35,657 nucleotides of DNA from a virus (Duplodnaviria; Heunggongvirae; Uroviricota; Caudoviricetes). The stretch spans positions 1 through 35,657 of IMG/VR virus record IMGVR_UViG_2740892433_000005; one strand, written 5' to 3'. Made by a program: the position numbers and the translations under genes. The notes below the pieces were generated by a model. The model ran no database searches. It worked only from the letters and a program-made list of their open reading frames with translations, and was not told the DNA's origin. Shown here piece after piece: positions 4,552 to 12,624 of the stretch. How positions within the stretch are numbered: position 1 is the first letter of the stretch; every line of letters starts with the position of its first letter.

Positions 4552-5435
4552 CACACACTCCTCGTCAGTATTCTGGCGGCCATTGCACTTAATCCCGGAG
4601 ACATGCGGTTGAATGCTGTTCCGACGGCGTTAAGCTGCCCGGAAACGGTATCCAGAGCACCTGCAATATTTCTTTTGTCCACACCACTCAGCGCAGACTG
4701 TGCCTGCTGTACATACGTGGCTGCTTCGCTGGCTGTTCTGGCCAGACTGATGGCATCGGGCATGGATTCAGAGAGTGCGTTAAACGCCGGAACACTTTTC
4801 CCCAGAGCCCCGGAGATATTACCCAGTCCGCTCATCAGCCCCGGCACACGGGTCAGTGCGACAACGGGGTTATCCTTCATTTTCTGTGTCACTCGAACGG
4901 CGCTGATAGTGGTCTGGAGTACAGACTGCGCCTGTTTCGCATAGTTGACGCCGTTGCGGATGAACTGCGCCACCCCGGAAGGTGAAGGAATGGCACCGGA
5001 GACCGCCCCGACACCCGGGAGCTTCGTGCGTATTGCCGGTGGTTGCAGAGGATTTTTCGGGTCACCGGTGTATTCCCGGAGAGACACGGTGGCACTGACA
5101 GCCAGCACGTTGCCGGTACTGTCAGTCTGCTCGCTGGTTGCAGTCACATCGGTAATCACGAACCAGCCGCGATAGTCACCGTTGCCGAAGACCAGCGCCA
5201 GTGCCTGATGGGCTTTCATGGCTGTTCGCAGTCTCGCCAGCTCCACATCGGGTACACAATAATGCTGATGGAAAACCAGAGTTATCTGGATTTCGTCCAG
5301 CCTGTCGCCGACGAACTGCAGGCCAGGCTTACCCCCGATGCGGGCATGCTCCGCATAATCGACGCCGAACGTGGCCTCGAAGCCGTCCCAGTAGGTAATC
5401 AGCTCAAACTCAATATCACCCAGTACGGCAAACAT
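4551..5435 (-). CDS. tail protein with P2 gpU-like / Mu N (DNA circulation) N-terminal region
   Basis: 294-aa ORF immediately downstream of the tape measure gene; N-terminal segment (..RIGGKPGLQFVGDRLDEIQITLVF..) resembles gpU-type tail proteins as I remember them. Confidence 0.45.
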   Translation of the reverse strand: MFAVLGDIEFELITYWDGFEATFGVDYAEHARIGGKPGLQFVGDRLDEIQITLVFHQHYCVPDVELARLRTAMKAHQALALVFGNGDYRGWFVITDVTATSEQTDSTGNVLAVSATVSLREYTGDPKNPLQPPAIRTKLPGVGAVSGAIPSPSGVAQFIRNGVNYAKQAQSVLQTTISAVRVTQKMKDNPVVALTRVPGLMSGLGNISGALGKSVPAFNALSESMPDAISLARTASEAATYVQQAQSALSGVDKRNIAGALDTVSGQLNAVGTAFNRMSPGLSAMAARILTRSV

Positions 5436-7033
5436 CAGCGGTACTCCTTACGTTGTTTCTGAGCCAGCAGACGCTCCAGCATTTTTTCCAGCTCATGCAG
5501 ACTCATATTCAGGGCACCAGTCAGTCCTGCAGGCGCTGTGGTTTCCCTGCCATTGAGGAAAAACTGAGGATTAAAGCTGACCTGGATACCACCAGACGTT
5601 CCACCGCCGGTTGCAGCTGCACCACGGCCTGAATATCCGGCAGCCAGGATTTCAGGCGAGGGGATACGGGGAACATCCGGTGTCATCTCATTTGCCAGAC
5701 GTTGCCCTGGTAAAATCGATGCCCGGGTGGAGAGCGGAATAACGGGCATGGAAGACAAACTATTGATTACGGCTCCGATCGCATTTTTAGCAGACGACAT
5801 AAACCCATTGATATCGGGCAACGGCATACTGAAGCGAACACCTGAAGTGTTATCCCGTATTTCTGGCCCCTGAATGCTCACGGGCATTCTGGGGAGCAGT
5901 TCACTGGCCATTCGCTGCCCGGCCAGAGCTGCAAGCGGAGTGGTCCGCTGCAGGCCAATGGCGGCCCCCTGCGCGATATTGTCACCAAAGCCCATAAACA
6001 CGCGGCTCGGCGAATGAATGCCCAGCTTTTCGCTGAACCAGCCACTGATGCTGTCACCCATTCCGGTTACACTGGATTTGAGCGACTCCCATTTGTTTTT
6101 GATACCGTTAATCAGACCGTCGACAAGATGGCCACCGAAGTCGGTGAACTTTGCCGGCAGATCAACACCAAGATATTTCAGCGCAGCTGCAAAGGCTTTA
6201 TAGAGCAGGCCTGCCGGCGACCAGTTAATCAGCAGCTTACCAGTTCCCGCGATACCGCCGTTAAAGGCTTCCTGAATGTCAGCCCAGCACTGTTTAAACC
6301 AGCTACTGATGCTGTCACCCATTCCGGTTACACTGGATTTGAGCGACCCCCATTTGTTTTTGATACCGTTAATCAGACCGTCGATAAGATGGCCACCGAA
6401 GTCGGTGAACTTTGCCGGCAGAGCAACGCCGAAATATTTCAGCGCAGCCGCAAAGGCTTTATAGAGCAGGCCTGCCGGCGACCAGTTAATCAGCAACTTA
6501 CCAATTCCCACAATTCCGCCGTTAAAGGCTTCCTGAATGTCAGCCCAGCGCTGTTTAAACCAGCTACTGATGCTGTCACCCATTCCGGTTACACTGGATT
6601 TGAGCGACCCCCATTTGTTTTTGATACCGTTAATCAGACCGTCGATAAGATGGCCACCGAAGTCGGTGAACTTTGCCGGCAGAGCAACGCCGAAATATTT
6701 CAGCGCAGCCGCAAAGGCTTTATAGAGCAGGCCTGCCGGCGACCAGTTAATCAGCAACTTACCAATTCCCACAATTCCGCCGTTAAAGGCTTCCTGAATG
6801 TCAGCCCAGCGCTGTTTAAACCAGCTACTGATGCTGTCACCCATTCCGGTTACACTGGATTTGAGCGACCCCCATTTGTTTTTGATACCGTTAATCAGAC
6901 CGTCGATAAGATGGCCACCGAAGTCGGTGAACTTTGCCGGCAGAGCAACGCCGAAATATTTCAGCGCAGCCGCAAAGGCTTTATAGAGCAGGCCTGCCGG
7001 CGACCAGTTAATCAGCAACTTACCAATTCCCAC
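5435..7033 (-). pseudogene. tail tape measure protein, C-terminal segment (out of frame with the N-terminal segment)
   Basis: 532-aa ORF made of 87-aa tandem repeat units followed by a unique C-terminus; same gene as 7012..9801 but in a different frame because of a 110-bp aberrant repeat unit at 7059-7168. Confidence 0.55.
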
Positions 7034-7995
7034 AATGCCGCCGTTAAAGGCTTCCTGAATGTCAGCCCAGCGCTGTTTAAACCAACCACTGACAGCCCCC
7101 CACCTGCCGGCGACCAGTTAATCAGCAACTTACCAATTCCCACAATTCCGCCGTTAAAGGCTTCCTGAATGTCAGCCCAGCGCTGTTTAAACCAGCTACT
7201 GATGCTGTCACCCATTCCGGTTACACTGGATTTGAGCGACCCCCATTTGTTTTTGATACCGTTAATCAGACCGTCGATAAGATGGCCACCGAAGTCGGTG
7301 AACTTTGCCGGCAGAGCAACGCCGAAATATTTCAGCGCAGCCGCAAAGGCTTTATAGAGCAGGCCTGCCGGCGACCAGTTAATCAGCAACTTACCAATTC
7401 CCACAATGCCGCCGTTAAAGGCTTCCTGAATGTCAGCCCAGCGCTGTTTAAACCAGCTACTGATGCTGTCACCCATTCCGGTTACACTGGATTTGAGCGA
7501 CCCCCATTTGTTTTTGATACCGTTAATCAGACCGTCGATAAGATGGCCACCGAAGTCGGTGAACTTTGCCGGCAGAGCAACGCCGAAATATTTCAGCGCA
7601 GCCGCAAAGGCTTTATAGAGCAGGCCTGCCGGCGACCAGTTAATCAGCAACTTACCAATTCCCACAATGCCGCCGTTAAAGGCTTCCTGAATGTCAGCCC
7701 AGCGCTGTTTAAACCAGCTACTGATGCTGTCACCCATTCCGGTTACACTGGATTTGAGCGACCCCCATTTGTTTTTGATACCGTTAATCAGACCGTCGAT
7801 AAGATGGCCACCGAAGTCGGTGAACTTTGCCGGCAGAGCAACGCCGAAATATTTCAGCGCAGCCGCAAAGGCTTTATAGAGCAGGCCTGCCGGCGACCAG
7901 TTAATCAGCAACTTACCAATTCCCACAATGCCGCCGTTAAAGGCTTCCTGAATGTCAGCCCAGCGCTGTTTAAACCAACCACTGACAGCCCCCCA
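6018..7995 (-). repeat. tandem array of ~261-bp (87-aa) repeats inside the tape measure gene, about 8 units
   Basis: The unit-start motif atgtcagcccagcgctgtttaaacca recurs at 6276, 6537, 6798, 7059, 7169, 7430, 7691 and 7952 (spacing 261, 261, 261, 110, 261, 261, 261); units are nearly identical at nucleotide level. Confidence 0.9.
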
Positions 7996-9801
7996 GTTGC
8001 GGTAGATAAGGTAAGCTGCTGTCGCGACAGCGGTGATAACGAGACCGATGGGATTCATCATCAGCGCTCGCCCAATCCAGAGAACGGCACGTGCAGCGCT
8101 CATAAAACCGCGAACGAGGCTGCCCGCCAGAACTTTGCTGAGTTTCAGTCCTCCGCTGGTCAGTCGGCTGAATCCAGTGACAAGCCAGCGTAATTTGCCA
8201 CCTTCTCCGAGTGCGGTAGTCAGTCGATGCCAGTTGGTCCGGAGTAAAACAGTAGTTTTCCAGACGTTCACAAAGGGGGAAATAAGGAGATTCAGCCCCA
8301 GTTTGAGACCAATAGTCGCTATCTTAATCGCAAGGAGCGCACTGATGAGCTTAAAAGCCCCACTGACAAATTGCGGGTGAGTCGCTACCCAGTGTTTTGT
8401 CCCCTGAATGAGTGGGAGCAGTTCCTGAGTCAGAGAAATAAAAGATGGAGCTAATTGATCGCCCAGCGTAATTGCCAGATCGCGACTGCTGACCATAAGT
8501 GTTTTAGTGGCTTCAAGGGGAGATTTCAGCCGCTGATCATAAGCACTGGCAAGCAAATCGTTATCCGCAGCCCTGAGAGCACCGGCACGGATCTCTCGAT
8601 ATCTGTCCATGTTGGCCAGCATCGGGCGGATAAATGCCATGACCTGCATATCCGCGAACATATCGCCCAGACCAAAGTTTTTCGCCAGAGCCTGAAGTGC
8701 CTCATCTCTTGCCGTATCATTCTTTATTTTCATGGCTGATTTGAAGCCGGCCAGCGCTTCGGGGCTTTTGGCATTGAGGTAACGTTCTATAACACTCAAC
8801 ATCCCTTCAATCGGAGAGATCCCCGCAGCTTTATAACTCGCAATAGATCCCTGCAAATCAATACCCAGATCAGCAAACTGTTTCTGAGTATCGCGGGCAA
8901 AAATTTTGGTAAGAAAGTTTTTAAAATTATTGGCTGCTTCGTCGGTGGAACCTGCACCGATTTTTGCTATCTGGAGACTGGCCCCGATTTCAGCAACAGC
9001 CTCTTTTCCACTGGCAAGACCCGCCATCATTGGGGCCAGGGACTGCATCCACTTGACCTGATCCGGGATTTCAAATGACCCCTGGTCACCGGCATAAGCC
9101 ATAATATTCTGAACGGCACCAAAATCTCTGGCCGCACCTTTCAGGGAGTTTTGCCAGACTGCGGCCACTTTTGCCCAGTCCTGAGCAGACGTGCGTGTTG
9201 CCGTTGCCGCGCGGGCAATATCCGGCATCAGAAAACCGATATCTGACACATTATCAATATTGTCGCTGATGAGTGAACCCACCGCCTCCTGCAGCTCATC
9301 CTGATACTGATTGTATTTAAGCGCCCAGCCTTTTATCTGTCCGGCAAGTGCATCCCGCGTTTTATTGTCATATTTTGCGGTGATCGACATATCAATCATT
9401 TTGTCCTGAAAAGACATGGACTGCTGAACGGCAGGGGAAACCGTATGATAAACAGTCTGTGCCATGCCATACGCTTCAATCCCCTGACCATACAGCGCCA
9501 TGCGGTTAGCTTTCAGCGCATCACTGGTAGCGGATGCCGCTGACAGACGGCGCTGCTGGCGCTCAATTTGCTCCATGGTGCGGCTTACCCGCAGCAGCTC
9601 GCTGTTGAGATGCTGCATCCGGGAAGAACCCAGTTGACCATAACGTTCTGTTGCACGGGTTAAAGCGTTCTGACGTTCCTGCAGGCGGCGTGAGGTATCG
9701 CTCAGGGAATCAAGCGCACGGCGGGTACCGCTCATTGCAGAACGGAATGTGCTGCCAATCATCCCGCCGATAACAACGCCGACTGAAAACTGTCCCGACA
9801 T
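7012..9801 (-). CDS. tail tape measure protein, N-terminal segment including the first repeat units
   Basis: 929-aa ORF; ATG at 9801 with GGAGG 9 nt upstream; long Ala/Gln-rich helical N-terminal region typical of tape measure proteins, then 87-aa repeats; ORF ends inside the aberrant repeat unit. Confidence 0.75.
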   Translation of the reverse strand: MSGQFSVGVVIGGMIGSTFRSAMSGTRRALDSLSDTSRRLQERQNALTRATERYGQLGSSRMQHLNSELLRVSRTMEQIERQQRRLSAASATSDALKANRMALYGQGIEAYGMAQTVYHTVSPAVQQSMSFQDKMIDMSITAKYDNKTRDALAGQIKGWALKYNQYQDELQEAVGSLISDNIDNVSDIGFLMPDIARAATATRTSAQDWAKVAAVWQNSLKGAARDFGAVQNIMAYAGDQGSFEIPDQVKWMQSLAPMMAGLASGKEAVAEIGASLQIAKIGAGSTDEAANNFKNFLTKIFARDTQKQFADLGIDLQGSIASYKAAGISPIEGMLSVIERYLNAKSPEALAGFKSAMKIKNDTARDEALQALAKNFGLGDMFADMQVMAFIRPMLANMDRYREIRAGALRAADNDLLASAYDQRLKSPLEATKTLMVSSRDLAITLGDQLAPSFISLTQELLPLIQGTKHWVATHPQFVSGAFKLISALLAIKIATIGLKLGLNLLISPFVNVWKTTVLLRTNWHRLTTALGEGGKLRWLVTGFSRLTSGGLKLSKVLAGSLVRGFMSAARAVLWIGRALMMNPIGLVITAVATAAYLIYRNWGAVSGWFKQRWADIQEAFNGGIVGIGKLLINWSPAGLLYKAFAAALKYFGVALPAKFTDFGGHLIDGLINGIKNKWGSLKSSVTGMGDSISSWFKQRWADIQEAFNGGIVGIGKLLINWSPAGLLYKAFAAALKYFGVALPAKFTDFGGHLIDGLINGIKNKWGSLKSSVTGMGDSISSWFKQRWADIQEAFNGGIVGIGKLLINWSPAGLLYKAFAAALKYFGVALPAKFTDFGGHLIDGLINGIKNKWGSLKSSVTGMGDSISSWFKQRWADIQEAFNGGIVGIGKLLINWSPAGGGLSVVGLNSAGLTFRKPLTAALWELVSC

Positions 9802-9851
9802 AGTGGTTAACCTCCGGGGAAGGTGAAAAGACGTGAGGGGATAACGCAGAA

Positions 9852-9870
9852 CAGCCGCTACTGGCGGCTG
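9852..9870 (-). other. stem-loop between tail chaperone and tape measure genes
   Basis: cagccgc / gcggctg 7-bp inverted repeat with 5-nt loop in the 75-nt gap before the tape measure start. Confidence 0.3.
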
Positions 9871-9876
9871 TCTGTA

Positions 9877-10134
9877 CTATGATTTGTCGCCGTACTCGCT
9901 TTTGATTTGCTCTTCAGCCTGCTCCAGCCACATCTCCAGATCGTCAGTATCGAGGGCATCAATCTCCCCCGGCTGAAACCGGAACCATCTCGCCAGCAGC
10001 CCCTGCGCCTGCGTCAGCGCCCTGGTTGCTCTCACCCATCCCCGTGATGAGCTGAAATCGTTTCTGTAACTGCAGGTAATCAGCCAGATCCATATTGTCG
10101 AGATCTTCCGGGAGAAGACCAGTACTGCGGGCAA
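9877..10134 (-). CDS. putative frameshift-extended C-terminal segment of the tail assembly chaperone (+1/-2 frame)
   Basis: ORF overlapping the 3' half of the chaperone gene in the +1 frame; its last ~45 codons (..GLLARWFRFQPGEIDALDTDDLEMWLEQAEEQIKSEYGDKS) look protein-like and end 75 nt before the tape measure gene, the classic chaperone-extension position. Confidence 0.35.
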   Translation of the reverse strand: MPAVLVFSRKISTIWIWLITCSYRNDFSSSRGWVRATRALTQAQGLLARWFRFQPGEIDALDTDDLEMWLEQAEEQIKSEYGDKS

Positions 10135-10294
10135 TCAGCGGTTCGTCCCAGTCTGCCGGGTTTTTGCTGATTTTGCGCACCTGCTTCAGGTCTTTTACCG
10201 TCAGGCGTTTCAGTTCAACCAGCTCAATTCTGGTGCCTGCAGCAGTGGTGAAGGGATAAGACAATTTAAAAGTATCGGATGGGGTCTGTGACAT
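9959..10294 (-). CDS. tail assembly chaperone
   Basis: 111-aa acidic ORF between tube-side genes and the tape measure gene; ATG at 10294 with AGGAG 8 nt upstream; overlapping alternate-frame ORF downstream as in G/GT-type chaperones. Confidence 0.55.
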   Translation of the reverse strand: MSQTPSDTFKLSYPFTTAAGTRIELVELKRLTVKDLKQVRKISKNPADWDEPLIARSTGLLPEDLDNMDLADYLQLQKRFQLITGMGESNQGADAGAGAAGEMVPVSAGGD

Positions 10295-10354: not shown

Positions 10355-10385
10355 AGGAGATTAAGAAGAAGGGGCCGGAGCCCCT
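10355..10385 (-). terminator. putative partial intrinsic terminator inside the tail operon
   Basis: On the minus strand AGGGGC-UCCG-GCCCCU hairpin (plus 10370-10385) followed by the U-rich run UCUUCUUAAUCUCCU, directly after the stop of the 93-aa ORF and before the chaperone RBS. Confidence 0.35.
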
Positions 10386-10391
10386 GTGATG

Positions 10392-10673
10392 TCAGCAAGT
10401 GCGAAACCCCTTGCAGTTACGCAGGAAAGCGATGAGAAGCGTCTTTCCCTCAGATTTGCCGATGCCGGAGAACCAGTGGTCGGGAGGCTCCCATGCTTCA
10501 ATCAAATCCGCCAGTTTGCGGGCCTTTGAACGTGTGCAGTCAATCGGGTCATTGGTTTTACGGGTATTAAAAAGGGTTTCCACCCCCGGAATATCAAGGA
10601 GGGTAAACCACGTACCATTTGACATGCCCAGTGCCGCACATCGTCCTCCTTTATCCGTCAGTTCAACACTCAC
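10392..10673 (-). CDS. hypothetical protein (GTG start), between tail tube and chaperone genes
   Basis: 93-aa ORF starting 2 nt after the tube gene stop; only a GTG is available at that position (first in-frame ATG is at codon 17); no family recognised. Confidence 0.3.
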   Translation of the reverse strand: MSVELTDKGGRCAALGMSNGTWFTLLDIPGVETLFNTRKTNDPIDCTRSKARKLADLIEAWEPPDHWFSGIGKSEGKTLLIAFLRNCKGFRTC

Positions 10674-10675
10674 CG

Positions 10676-11197
10676 TCAGCCCCCGATATTGATACGGTAG
10701 TCAGTCAGTTGATCAACACCGCCGACCCGGAAGATGTTGGCCAGATAGTCCAGTTGCAGCAGCTCTTCACCATCCAGTACCTGTCTGATATACGTGCAGG
10801 TGAAGCTACTGGAGAACTCGGCGTTCTCGTGCTGTTTGAACGTCCCCAGCGGGTTCTTCTTGAACATAATCGTCAGGAAGGTGACCAGCGGGATTTCGTC
10901 AATCAGCCCCTGCGAGCTGTAGCGCTGGACGCTGGAACGACACTGCAGTGCCAGCGACCTGTACGGGTTCGCGGCAGACAGCATCGCATCGCGGTAAAAG
11001 CTGTTCCATTTGATTTCGCCTTCCAGCTTGTCAAAACCAGCCGGGAGTTCCACCTTACCCACCATCCCCAGCGCCTTGTGTTCCTGCATAATCATGGAGA
11101 CATCGGGGAGTTTGACTTCCTCAGCCCGTCCCAGCAGGTTAGTACCATCCAGATAGATGTTGGCATTCGTGATGCGGTTTATCTCAATCTTTGACAT
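10676..11197 (-). CDS. tail tube protein (Mu gpM-like)
   Basis: 173-aa ORF; ATG at 11197 shares a nucleotide with the sheath gene stop; size and position right after the sheath gene. Confidence 0.6.
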   Translation of the reverse strand: MSKIEINRITNANIYLDGTNLLGRAEEVKLPDVSMIMQEHKALGMVGKVELPAGFDKLEGEIKWNSFYRDAMLSAANPYRSLALQCRSSVQRYSSQGLIDEIPLVTFLTIMFKKNPLGTFKQHENAEFSSSFTCTYIRQVLDGEELLQLDYLANIFRVGGVDQLTDYRINIGG

Positions 11198-12624
11198 CAG
11201 TTGCCCCCTTTCAGGGTTAACAGGTATTCCGAGGTGATCTCAGTCTCAAACGTCAGTCGCTCCAGCGGCGGTGGTGGCGTATATTTGTAGCTCAGCAACA
11301 GGTGCCCGGCGGCCAGCTCCGTCTCCGGATTGCGGGCCGGATCAAACCAGCAACGGAAGCCCAGTACCGCACCATCACCAGTCATTTTGCGACCGTAGGC
11401 GTTGACCGACTCCGTCAGTGCATCAATCAGCGCCTGAGTAATCGGCATGTCGATGTACTGCTGGCTGAAATAACGAATGGACTCGTTGATCACATCACCG
11501 GTGCGGCGAACGTTCTCAAAGTTACGCATATGGGTGACCGTTGGCCATGCTGCCGTCCGGTTACCCCACAGACGAAGGCCGCTGCCGTAACTGCTGAATA
11601 CCGTGGTGATCCCCTGTTCGTTAAGCAGGTTCACCTCACTCTGCGGGTCATCAATCATCGCGGACAGCTGGCGCTCCACGCCGGTGATCCCCAGAATCTC
11701 CTGATTGGAGGATGACCACCAGTAGCCCTTGTCCAGATCGACTCTGGCACGCAGACCTGCTGCACGCTGGCTGAGCGGCTCCAGACGCTCTGTGTTTGTC
11801 ACCGGGTCATATACCTTCACATGCGGATAGCACAGACGGACGCGGTCGGAGCTGGTATTGAAGTTGATGGTGCCTTCCGGGCCACGACCTGCCAGAGCCT
11901 GTGCAAAGGTGGTACCGACAGGCGCATCAATGTAGGTTACCGCGCCCAGCTTCTCTGCCATGGCGATAAGCTCAACTGCGACACTCTTCTGGGTGCAGAA
12001 CACCGGCGCAATCAGAATTTTGGCGAAATAGCCGTACAGGTTGAAGCTGTCGTTAAGCAGCTTCATGCCGGTTCGGTTTCCGGCGCTGTTCACCCCGCCG
12101 ATGATGTCCGCCGCAGTCACCTTCGACGGGTCCGCGTACTCATAGCTCACCTTCACGCTGCCACCGGCCTCAATAGCCTTGCCCAGGTTCGTGAGCACAC
12201 CCGCCTGCGCATCAACACGGTAGTCCGTGTTCGCCGTGTGGGTGGTGCTGCCTTCACTGTTTTTCACCACCACATTAGCGACAACCGGATGCGCCAGTCT
12301 GGCCTGCCCTGTCGATTTGTCAAAGGTAACCACCTCATCCTCGATCGCCGTTTTATGTTTCGCCGGGTCGAGGACGTTAATGACCAGAACGGTGCCTGCA
12401 CCATGGTCATAAATCGCATCCAGCGCCTGCGGAATGGTAAAGCCGGTGAACTGGCTGCCAAATGCCGCTGCGTCTTTCTCAGACAGGCACTGTACCAGCG
12501 TATTGACATCCCCCATCGGGGCGGTACCAATCAGGCCAATAACGGCAGATTTCACCGTTTTAACCGGGCGGGCTCCGTTTTCCACCTCAATGGTTTCGGG
12601 ACCATGCAGATAGTTAGCTGCCAT
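11197..12624 (-). CDS. tail sheath protein (Mu gpL-like)
   Basis: 475-aa ORF; size and placement upstream of the tube gene; composition typical of contractile sheath proteins. Confidence 0.75.
   Translation of the reverse strand: MAANYLHGPETIEVENGARPVKTVKSAVIGLIGTAPMGDVNTLVQCLSEKDAAAFGSQFTGFTIPQALDAIYDHGAGTVLVINVLDPAKHKTAIEDEVVTFDKSTGQARLAHPVVANVVVKNSEGSTTHTANTDYRVDAQAGVLTNLGKAIEAGGSVKVSYEYADPSKVTAADIIGGVNSAGNRTGMKLLNDSFNLYGYFAKILIAPVFCTQKSVAVELIAMAEKLGAVTYIDAPVGTTFAQALAGRGPEGTINFNTSSDRVRLCYPHVKVYDPVTNTERLEPLSQRAAGLRARVDLDKGYWWSSSNQEILGITGVERQLSAMIDDPQSEVNLLNEQGITTVFSSYGSGLRLWGNRTAAWPTVTHMRNFENVRRTGDVINESIRYFSQQYIDMPITQALIDALTESVNAYGRKMTGDGAVLGFRCWFDPARNPETELAAGHLLLSYKYTPPPPLERLTFETEITSEYLLTLKGGN

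Follow-up and report, generated by a model that had tools for sequence, protein, structure and literature searches.

A probable programmed +1 ribosomal frameshift on CGA_UUU_C in the gene for the tail assembly chaperone of a BcepMu-like prophage

Introduction

How a tail assembly chaperone is joined to an extension that lies in the +1 frame is the question raised by a minus-strand locus in a BcepMu-like prophage, the contractile tail of which is of the P2 type (IMG/VR virus record IMGVR_UViG_2740892433_000005; the window, that is, the whole stretch of DNA analyzed, comprises positions 1 to 35,657 of this record). Few recoding events in phages are as conserved as the frameshifts in tail chaperone genes, which are almost invariably annotated as −1. 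In this prophage, the chaperone of 111 amino acids (aa) is overlapped by another open reading frame (ORF). As had been claimed in an earlier reading of the sequence alone (hereafter, the sequence-only reading) and as three-frame translation confirms, its codons begin one nucleotide (nt) downstream of the chaperone frame, which corresponds to +1 (equivalently −2). On the basis of comparison with related loci, it is likely that the two frames are connected by a programmed +1 ribosomal frameshift on CGA_UUU_C, in which tRNAPhe would slip in the P-site to give a 138-aa fusion. The two products would form a tail chaperone pair homologous to gpE and gpE+E' of phage P2, but with the second product made via +1 instead of −1.

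Reading frame and identity of the extension

A total of 205 related loci were gathered from viral contigs, genomes, phage records and assemblies, in which the chaperone and the extension were located with hidden Markov models (HMMs). The chaperone was found in 203 of them, which are the basis of the frame counts. Motifs, G-runs and start codons were counted in 126 distinct sequences of the +1 type, and nucleotide diversity by codon position was calculated from 62 distinct close relatives.

Of the 203 loci, 172 have a GpE'-like extension in the +1 frame and 17 have it in the −1 frame; another 4 have it fused in frame 0, and none was detected in the remaining 10. The +1 arrangement, which spans Enterobacteria, Burkholderia (BcepMu, phiE255), Ralstonia and metagenomic phages, is by this distribution an old conserved feature, far beyond chance, and not a sequencing indel. 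The sequence-only reading had proposed comparison with the homologous gene pair of relatives as a check, and its view that the shift is of a +1 type rather than the usual −1 is borne out by this comparison. It had also held that relatives with the extension in the −1 frame behind a canonical slippery site would point to a sequencing indel in the window. Such relatives do exist, but they are limited to the 17 distant loci (e.g., with GAT_TTT_TTA), and they indicate that the direction of the shift has changed in evolution rather than that the sequence of the window is wrong. The heptamers of these 17 loci, GAT_TTT_TTA, GGT_TTT_TTA, AGT_TTT_TTC, GAT_TTT_TTG and G_GGA_AAG, lie two to three codons 3' of the equivalent of Phe80 of the chaperone, as in P2, and the Phe80-equivalent codon is TTC in one of them. 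Judging from these alignments, the chaperone family has switched its shift direction within the same short T-rich stretch.

The chaperone is assigned by its matches to PF10109 (Phage_TAC_7; E=5.5e-21, 74.8 bits, with a Pfam cut-off of 25) and to the tail protein family phrog_166 (E=2.8e-32); NCBIfam gave no useful match. The C-terminal half of the +1 ORF is acidic and protein-like, ending in ...EIDALDTDDLEMWLEQAEEQIKSEYGDKS 76 nt before the ATG of the tape measure gene, in agreement with the earlier description of a protein-like acidic tail just upstream of that gene. A family profile of the extension was aligned by hhalign to P2 E' with a probability of 95.3% and E=2.3e-8 over the stretch QAQGLLARWFRFQPGEIDALDTDDLEMWLEQAEEQ. 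PF06528 (Phage_P2_GpE) matches 14 of 21 diverse family members, with a best E of 1.6e-8, and the extension of the window alone gives E=0.0015–0.007 and 16–18 bits, below the gathering score of 23. By these profile comparisons, the extension is homologous to P2 gpE', and the locus is a P2 gpE/gpE+E' system with its extension in a different frame. The GpE'-homologous domain starts about 14 codons upstream of the G-run discussed below. The predicted fusion consists of 80 plus 58 residues, 138 aa in all (MSQ...LQKRF-SSSRGWVRATRALTQAQGLLARWFRFQPGEIDAL...GDKS; full +1 part SSSRGWVRATRALTQAQGLLARWFRFQPGEIDALDTDDLEMWLEQAEEQIKSEYGDKS), so that translation of the +1 ORF would be limited to the part downstream of position 10054.

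Location of the shift at Phe80

The limits of the two frames in relatives narrow down the place of the shift. The +1 frame opens merely 8 nt 5' of the Phe codon in Ralstonia phage YO107_2 and in L173/L179/L183, and frame 0 ends 5–8 codons past it in others, where the stop codon follows RLMLG (L169), LEGSSD (L174), RGMLDSAG (L144) or QSFAGLAA (L117/L121), the earliest end being 18 nt after the first base of the Phe codon. Provided that the site is homologous across the family, these openings and stops leave a stretch of about 26 nt around Phe80 for a shared site. The sole common element of this stretch is an in-frame TTT followed by a pyrimidine, which is found in all of the 126 distinct sequences; the following base is C in 125 and T in one, and TTC occurs in none.

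This bias in codon choice is peculiar to Phe80. The Phe80 column has TTT in 121 sequences and TTC in none, and four other Phe columns of the same genes, taken as a control, have TTT:TTC ratios of 53:12, 11:21, 21:54 and 7:9. Many of the 21 clusters into which the sequences fall at <70% protein identity have a GC content of 59–66%, with TTT accounting for just 9–34% of their Phe codons; the product of local TTT usage over these clusters is about 1e-11, a rough guide because the clusters are not fully independent. The codon after TTT specifies Gln, Arg, Leu, His or Tyr, always with C or T as the first base, and Arg is never encoded there by AGR nor Leu by TTR. On the other side, CGA is the codon in 83 of the 85 sequences with Arg before Phe, against a background usage of 10%. 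All seven positions of CGA_TTT_C are invariant in the 62 close relatives. Elsewhere in the family, UUU is followed by CGN in 33 of the 126 sequences and preceded by TCC in 12; the motif is TCC_TTT_CGC or GCC_TTT_CGC in BcepMu and its close relatives. The permitted stretch of the window has no other in-frame homotriplet able to re-pair one base downstream. A 90-aa variant of the chaperone that is common in E. coli (914 contigs; L023, L024, protein P0026) arises from a change of CAG to TAG at codon 91, and in this variant Phe80 stays upstream of the stop codon, with the +1 ORF and UUU_C intact.

The pattern of substitution changes frame at the same place. Among the close relatives, diversity before Phe80 peaks at the third positions of frame 0 (0.395 vs 0.17 and 0.09), and at codons +9 to +24 after Phe80 the peak moves to the third positions of the +1 frame (0.27 vs 0.12). 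Across the G-run, +1-frame third positions have 0.32 vs 0.035, the lower values overall being 0.04–0.12. A +1-frame Trp codon six codons after Phe is invariant among the close relatives, and a +1 peptide pattern that begins right after Phe, F-x-x-(C)-W-[VLI]-x-P-x-x-LW....LLARWF (F-x-x-(C)-W...LW....LLARWFRFQPSEID), is kept between clusters of <40% identity. The RWFRF segment stays the same despite AGA/AGG, CGG/AGG/AGA/CGC and TTT/TTC exchanges, by which frame 0 is altered or acquires a stop codon. As judged from this periodicity, the +1 frame is under purifying selection from just after Phe80.

Proposed mechanism and points against it

According to the proposed mechanism, most ribosomes would stay in frame 0 to synthesize the 111-aa chaperone. 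A minority would pause with tRNAPhe (anticodon GAA) on the UUU of Phe80 in the P-site, and the tRNA would re-pair one base downstream on UUC, its stronger partner, so that reading would resume at AGC (10053–10051) to produce the 138-aa fusion. UUC is a better match than UUU for tRNAPhe (3'-AAG-5'), which favors slippage in the P-site on UUU_C. The weakly pairing CGA in the E-site may stimulate the shift. If the pair works as lambda G/GT and P2 E/E+E' do, the N-terminal domain common to both products would serve to bind the tape measure protein and the GpE'-like C-terminus to recruit tube subunits, the low frequency of the shift setting the ratio of the two products. The ribosomal nature of the shift, its exact position on UUU_C, its efficiency and the roles of the two products are what we infer from the comparison.

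There are some reports that make such a site plausible. UUU_Ynn has a particular tendency toward +1 shifting in bacteria, even without a stop codon next to it (PMC5009743), and in a large screen by cell-free translation, tetramers of the TTT_C type belong to the +1 sites with the highest efficiency (bioRxiv 10.1101/2025.10.02.679949). The shift on UCC_UUU_CGU of influenza PA-X has been proven by mass spectrometry (PMC3498833). As no conserved RNA structure or Shine-Dalgarno (SD)-like element was found at the locus, the efficiency is probably low, which would fit the known need for only a small amount of the long form; the ratio of lambda G to GT is about 30:1 (PMC5009743).

Several points weigh against this mechanism, besides the partial dependence of the clusters mentioned above. 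Both the fusion and its junction are predicted from comparative sequence analysis, and that the lineages share a single homologous site is presumed. Within the lineage of the window, stop codons by themselves permit any site from 10134 to the TAG of the codon-91 variant. Frame 0 is constrained too over the first eight codons past TTT, where the periodicity is mixed. UUU_C is a very common tetranucleotide that is expected to shift weakly by itself, and the A-site codon in the window, CAG, is not rare in E. coli. Nor was any stimulator found: no SD-like element lies upstream of UUU_C, and 49 distinct relatives yielded no downstream consensus structure (−2.0 kcal/mol), with single-sequence z-scores of −1.6 to +1.6. 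A stimulatory RNA structure 3' of UUU_C was considered and rejected, because the window folds there with z=−2.1 but the 49 relatives have no consensus.

Alternative explanations

Of the rival explanations, the one that survives best assumes no frameshift at all: the +1 ORF would be translated independently from an internal start codon such as GTG at 10035–10033. PGAP and PHROGs indeed treat the +1 ORF as a separate small protein (in one genome PGAP has a 52-aa 'GpE family phage tail protein'), and some ATG, GTG or TTG upstream of the domain is available in the +1 ORF of 110 of the 126 relatives. When an SD-like sequence is required together with a start codon 3' of TTT, the number falls to only 13 of the 126, and no start position is conserved. 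In addition, the +1 peptide is conserved directly after Phe80, including the invariant Trp, which lies upstream of the putative GTG start, and independent initiation leaves the conservation of UUU_Y and CGA unexplained. E' of P2 is annotated as made solely as the E+E' fusion. Internal initiation is thus considered unlikely.

The sequence-only reading had suggested a different place for the shift, namely the run of five G (G5) close to the chaperone stop codon. The run is present as it had described, and a +1 or −2 slip on it (GCC_GGG_GGA_GAU_UGA, 9970–9966) by the stop codon would give the junction ...VSAG(G)EIDAL... and would resemble phage Mu, where a −2 shift has been verified on CGG_GGG_CGA, a sequence that likewise has G5 and lies close to the end of the chaperone gene. 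The run is kept in all relatives with a 111-aa chaperone. Its role as a slip site nevertheless finds no support in the frame-0 stop positions, the substitution pattern or its own conservation. Frame 0 stops upstream of the G-run in the relatives with chaperones of 90, 92, 100, 104 and 106 aa, and a run of at least five G inside the overlap is present in just 20 of the 126 distinct sequences. In the +1 frame, the run is read as CCG_GGG_GAG, which encodes Pro-Gly-Glu, and relatives have CCT/CCA_GGG or CCG_AGT instead, changes that are synonymous or conservative in that frame; even in the 111-aa group, changes just 5' of the run replace residues of frame 0 but leave those of +1 as they are. A shift at the G-run would remove half of the GpE'-homologous domain, and homology to Mu gp41 is not detectable (hhalign probability 0.6%, E=0.095). 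The conserved UUU_C, 29 codons upstream of the G-run, appears to be the site instead, and slippage on the G-run is very unlikely.

It is even less probable that the fusion is generated at the level of nucleic acid, by slippage of RNA polymerase or by genomic indels (phase variation) at the G-run in a subpopulation. What speaks for it is the recurrence of assemblies in which the run is G4 and the frames are fused into a 138-aa protein through ...VSAGEIDAL... (P0007, P0009 (16 member sequences), P0004, P0006, L079, L097); these G4 variants may represent either homopolymer sequencing errors or real indel variation. The fused proteins in databases, however, do not share the position of their indels, and most of them stem from read assemblies that are prone to error. 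For slippage of a polymerase, G5 and T3 are short runs, most relatives can do without the G-run, and the conservation of UUU_Y is left unexplained by this model, too. The weakest candidate is a decaying, unexpressed remnant in a cryptic prophage: the split tape measure gene of the window and the common 90-aa truncated chaperone could be taken as signs of decay, but such a scenario is hardly credible in view of the strong purifying selection on the +1 peptide in 172 loci, including those of the isolated phages PhiKM, KP12, BcepMu and phiE255, and of the intact tape measure gene that adjoins the same chaperone region in E. coli 2016C-3878.

Three further ideas about the junction were discarded. 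A 'shifty stop' GTT_TAG with an SD-like GAGGTG in front of it (GAG_GTG_GTT_TAG) is found in the abundant 104-aa form of the chaperone, but RWFRF upstream of it is conserved via changes that are synonymous in +1. GGG_G at codon 98 (10003–10001) is replaced in relatives by GGG_T, GGG_A or GGC, with Gln-Gly-Leu-Leu kept in the +1 frame. The fused database proteins of 138–144 aa were rejected as evidence for the junction, because their indels are scattered and look like assembly errors or mutations.

Organization of the locus

The features of the locus are listed in Table 1. The gene order is sheath, tube, 93-aa ORF, chaperone and tape measure, according to the ORF list and Pfam.

Table 1. Features of the chaperone locus, in the direction of transcription (positions in the window)
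Feature	Position	Strand	Basis or remark
Sheath gene	11197–12624	−	
Tail tube gene	10676–11197	−	PF04985
93-aa ORF between tube and chaperone genes	10392–10673	−	phrog_1239, E=4.7e-48; weak DUF7739 match
Tail assembly chaperone, frame 0, 111 aa (homologue of P2 gpE and BcepMu gp41)	9959–10294	−	PF10109, phrog_166
Full +1-frame ORF, 85 aa from a TTG	9877–10134	−	ORF list; phrog_8286 matches residues 34–85
Proposed +1 shift site CGA_UUU_C (E-site CGA 10060–10058; P-site UUU, Phe80, 10057–10055; C 10054)	10054–10060	−	Comparative
Predicted +1 coding segment after the shift, 58 codons and stop codon (9879–9877)	9877–10053	−	Translation; substitution periodicity
GpE'-like domain in the +1 segment (QAQGLLARWFRFQPGEIDALDTDDLEMWLEQAEEQ)	9907–10011	−	hhalign to P2 E'; PF06528
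G5 run	9966–9970	−	Codons 109–110; frame-0 stop is codon 112; Pro-Gly-Glu in +1 frame
Hairpin CAGCCGC-CAGTA-GCGGCTG, no U tract	9852–9870	−	Between extension stop and tape measure start
Tape measure start, ATG 9801–9799 with GGAGG at 9815–9811	9799–9815	−	Sequence

The region is almost the same as that of Escherichia phage PhiKM (99.8% identity) and shares about 85% identity with Klebsiella phage KP12. When the chaperone region was searched against 5426 complete E. coli genomes, identical 531 bases were found in 637.

Two hairpins flank the chaperone and its extension. The stem-loop that the sequence-only reading had placed after the extension is real: it has a folding energy of −18.1 kcal/mol (z=−4.4; none of 200 shuffled sequences folds as well), and it was not scored as a terminator. 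It is kept in close relatives with both arms varying, e.g., ACAGCCGC..GCGGCTGT and CAGCAGCCG..CGGCTGCTT. On the upstream side, a terminator-like GC hairpin with a T-rich tail (AGGGGCTCCGGCCCCT TCTTCTTAAT; 10370–10385, minus strand) separates the 93-aa ORF from the chaperone start and might lower transcription of the chaperone and tape measure genes relative to the sheath and tube genes. The 93-aa ORF itself is conserved, yet it is missing from this spot in some relatives. In several relatives (L117–L121, L123 and L124), the space that separates the extension from the tape measure gene holds an ORF of 80–99 aa on the opposite strand, annotated in phiE255 as a 'membrane protein', and none is present at the equivalent position in the window.

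The tape measure gene (5435–9801, minus strand) is split in the window into two ORFs, 7012–9801, which carries PF10145, and 5435–7033. It contains 261-bp tandem repeats at 6036–7092 (4 copies) and 7103–7985 (3.4 copies), together with a 110-nt partial duplication at 6993–7202. In E. coli 2016C-3878, the chaperone region of which is 100% identical, the tape measure gene is one intact coding sequence of 3213 nt, and the span in the window is 1154 nt longer. This excess equals 4×261+110, which suggests repeat expansion or mis-assembly, the 110-nt piece being the one that breaks the frame. The PhiKM record, too, flags a sequencing gap in this region.

Annotation and significance

The records of PhiKM and KP12 and the RefSeq records of E. 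coli have the short chaperone only, although a stray 'GpE family' or 'conserved domain' ORF is found in some records among PhiKM, KP12, phiE255 and the RefSeq E. coli prophages. The +1 fusion appears in no public annotation among those examined. In the GenBank model of BcepMu (L003/L122; AY539836/NC_005882, 24602–25363), gp42 is connected to gp43 by −1 ribosomal slippage. BcepMu gp42 is the +1 frame of gp41, the PF10109 chaperone, and holds the GpE'-like domain, while TCC_TTT_CGC sits in gp41. Because of this frame relation, the −1 model of gp42/gp43 looks wrong. No description of a +1 site in BcepMu-like chaperones was found in the literature searched, the coverage of which was partial, so that an earlier description may exist.

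Beyond the window, the balance of evidence leans, with less assurance than for the site itself, toward the view that the large proteobacterial myophage chaperone family comprising BcepMu-like phages and their relatives gave up the −1 heptamer of its ancestors for N_UUU_C, a minimal signal for +1. This signal would take the form UCC/GCC_UUU_CGN in Burkholderia phages and CGA_UUU_CAG in enterobacterial ones, with the same core motif as in influenza PA-X and plant amalgaviruses, and it appears to work without conserved RNA structure or an SD-like stimulator. If this is true, a whole branch of the P2 E/E' group would depend on a four-base +1 motif, the published −1 model of BcepMu gp42/gp43 would be wrong, and the prophages found in about 12% of the complete E. 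coli genomes would gain an essential tail protein once correctly annotated. In addition, this family would represent the UUU_C class in prokaryotes by an example that is natural and deeply conserved, with built-in comparative data on the effects of E-site and A-site codons: at least 21 diverged lineages carry the site with differing codons in the E-site (CGA, UCC, GCC) and the A-site (CAG, CGN, CUN), so that the context rules of this poorly understood class of +1 shifts would be directly testable in E. coli.

Comparison with known systems

The closest known system is gpE/gpE+E' of P2 (PF10109 and PF06528). Both parts are homologous to those in the window, the pair lies between the tube and tape measure genes, and the shift would fall, as in P2, into the short stretch that follows the conserved LADY..LQ..F motif; the heptamer of P2 is about three codons 3' of the Phe80 equivalent. 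The difference is in the signal: P2 shifts by −1 on the heptamer T_TTT_TTG (GGT_TTT_TTG), whereas the window would shift by +1 on a UUU_C tetranucleotide preceded by CGA. The −1 heptamer of the form X_XXY_YYZ that characterizes the P2 pair is absent from the window and is confined to the 17 loci of the −1 type and P2. The frame-0 tail after the site is 31 codons in the window as compared with 6 in P2, and the window thus has an extended dual-coding overlap. Lambda gpG/gpGT is similar in that two products with a shared N-terminus are made at a fixed low ratio from a gene just 5' of the tape measure gene, but it belongs to a siphovirus tail, has no sequence similarity and uses −1 on the heptamer G_GGA_AAG.

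Phage Mu resembles the window in its layout. The chaperone is immediately 5' of the tape measure gene, the extension frame is +1 (equivalently −2), and G5 lies near the frame-0 stop codon; the verified −2 frameshift of gp41/Mu_56 occurs on CGG_GGG_CGA (GenBank AF083977). On the other hand, there is no detectable sequence homology, and the G-run of the window differs from that of Mu in codon phase and lacks conservation. Re-pairing by −2 is impossible on CGA_UUU_C, and the evidence places the shift of the window 29 codons upstream of the run, as +1.

The proposed signal itself has its counterparts outside tail chaperones. Influenza A PA-X (UCC_UUU_CGU), amalgaviruses (UUU_CGN) and bacterial UUU_Ynn sites (argI, Yersinia yopN-tyeA) have the same UUU followed by a pyrimidine and the same re-pairing of tRNAPhe on UUC. 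As in the window, synonymous positions are conserved at sites of the UUU_C type, and the expected efficiency is low. Unlike PA-X and amalgaviruses, the case of the window is a structural gene of a prokaryotic phage, with a junction that is predicted from the comparison of sequences. Enterobacterial members, including the window, have CGA in the E-site and CAG in the A-site, where PA-X and the amalgaviruses have the UCC and CGN form. The high-GC members of the family, with UCC/GCC_UUU_CGC/CGG, share the very core of the PA-X site.

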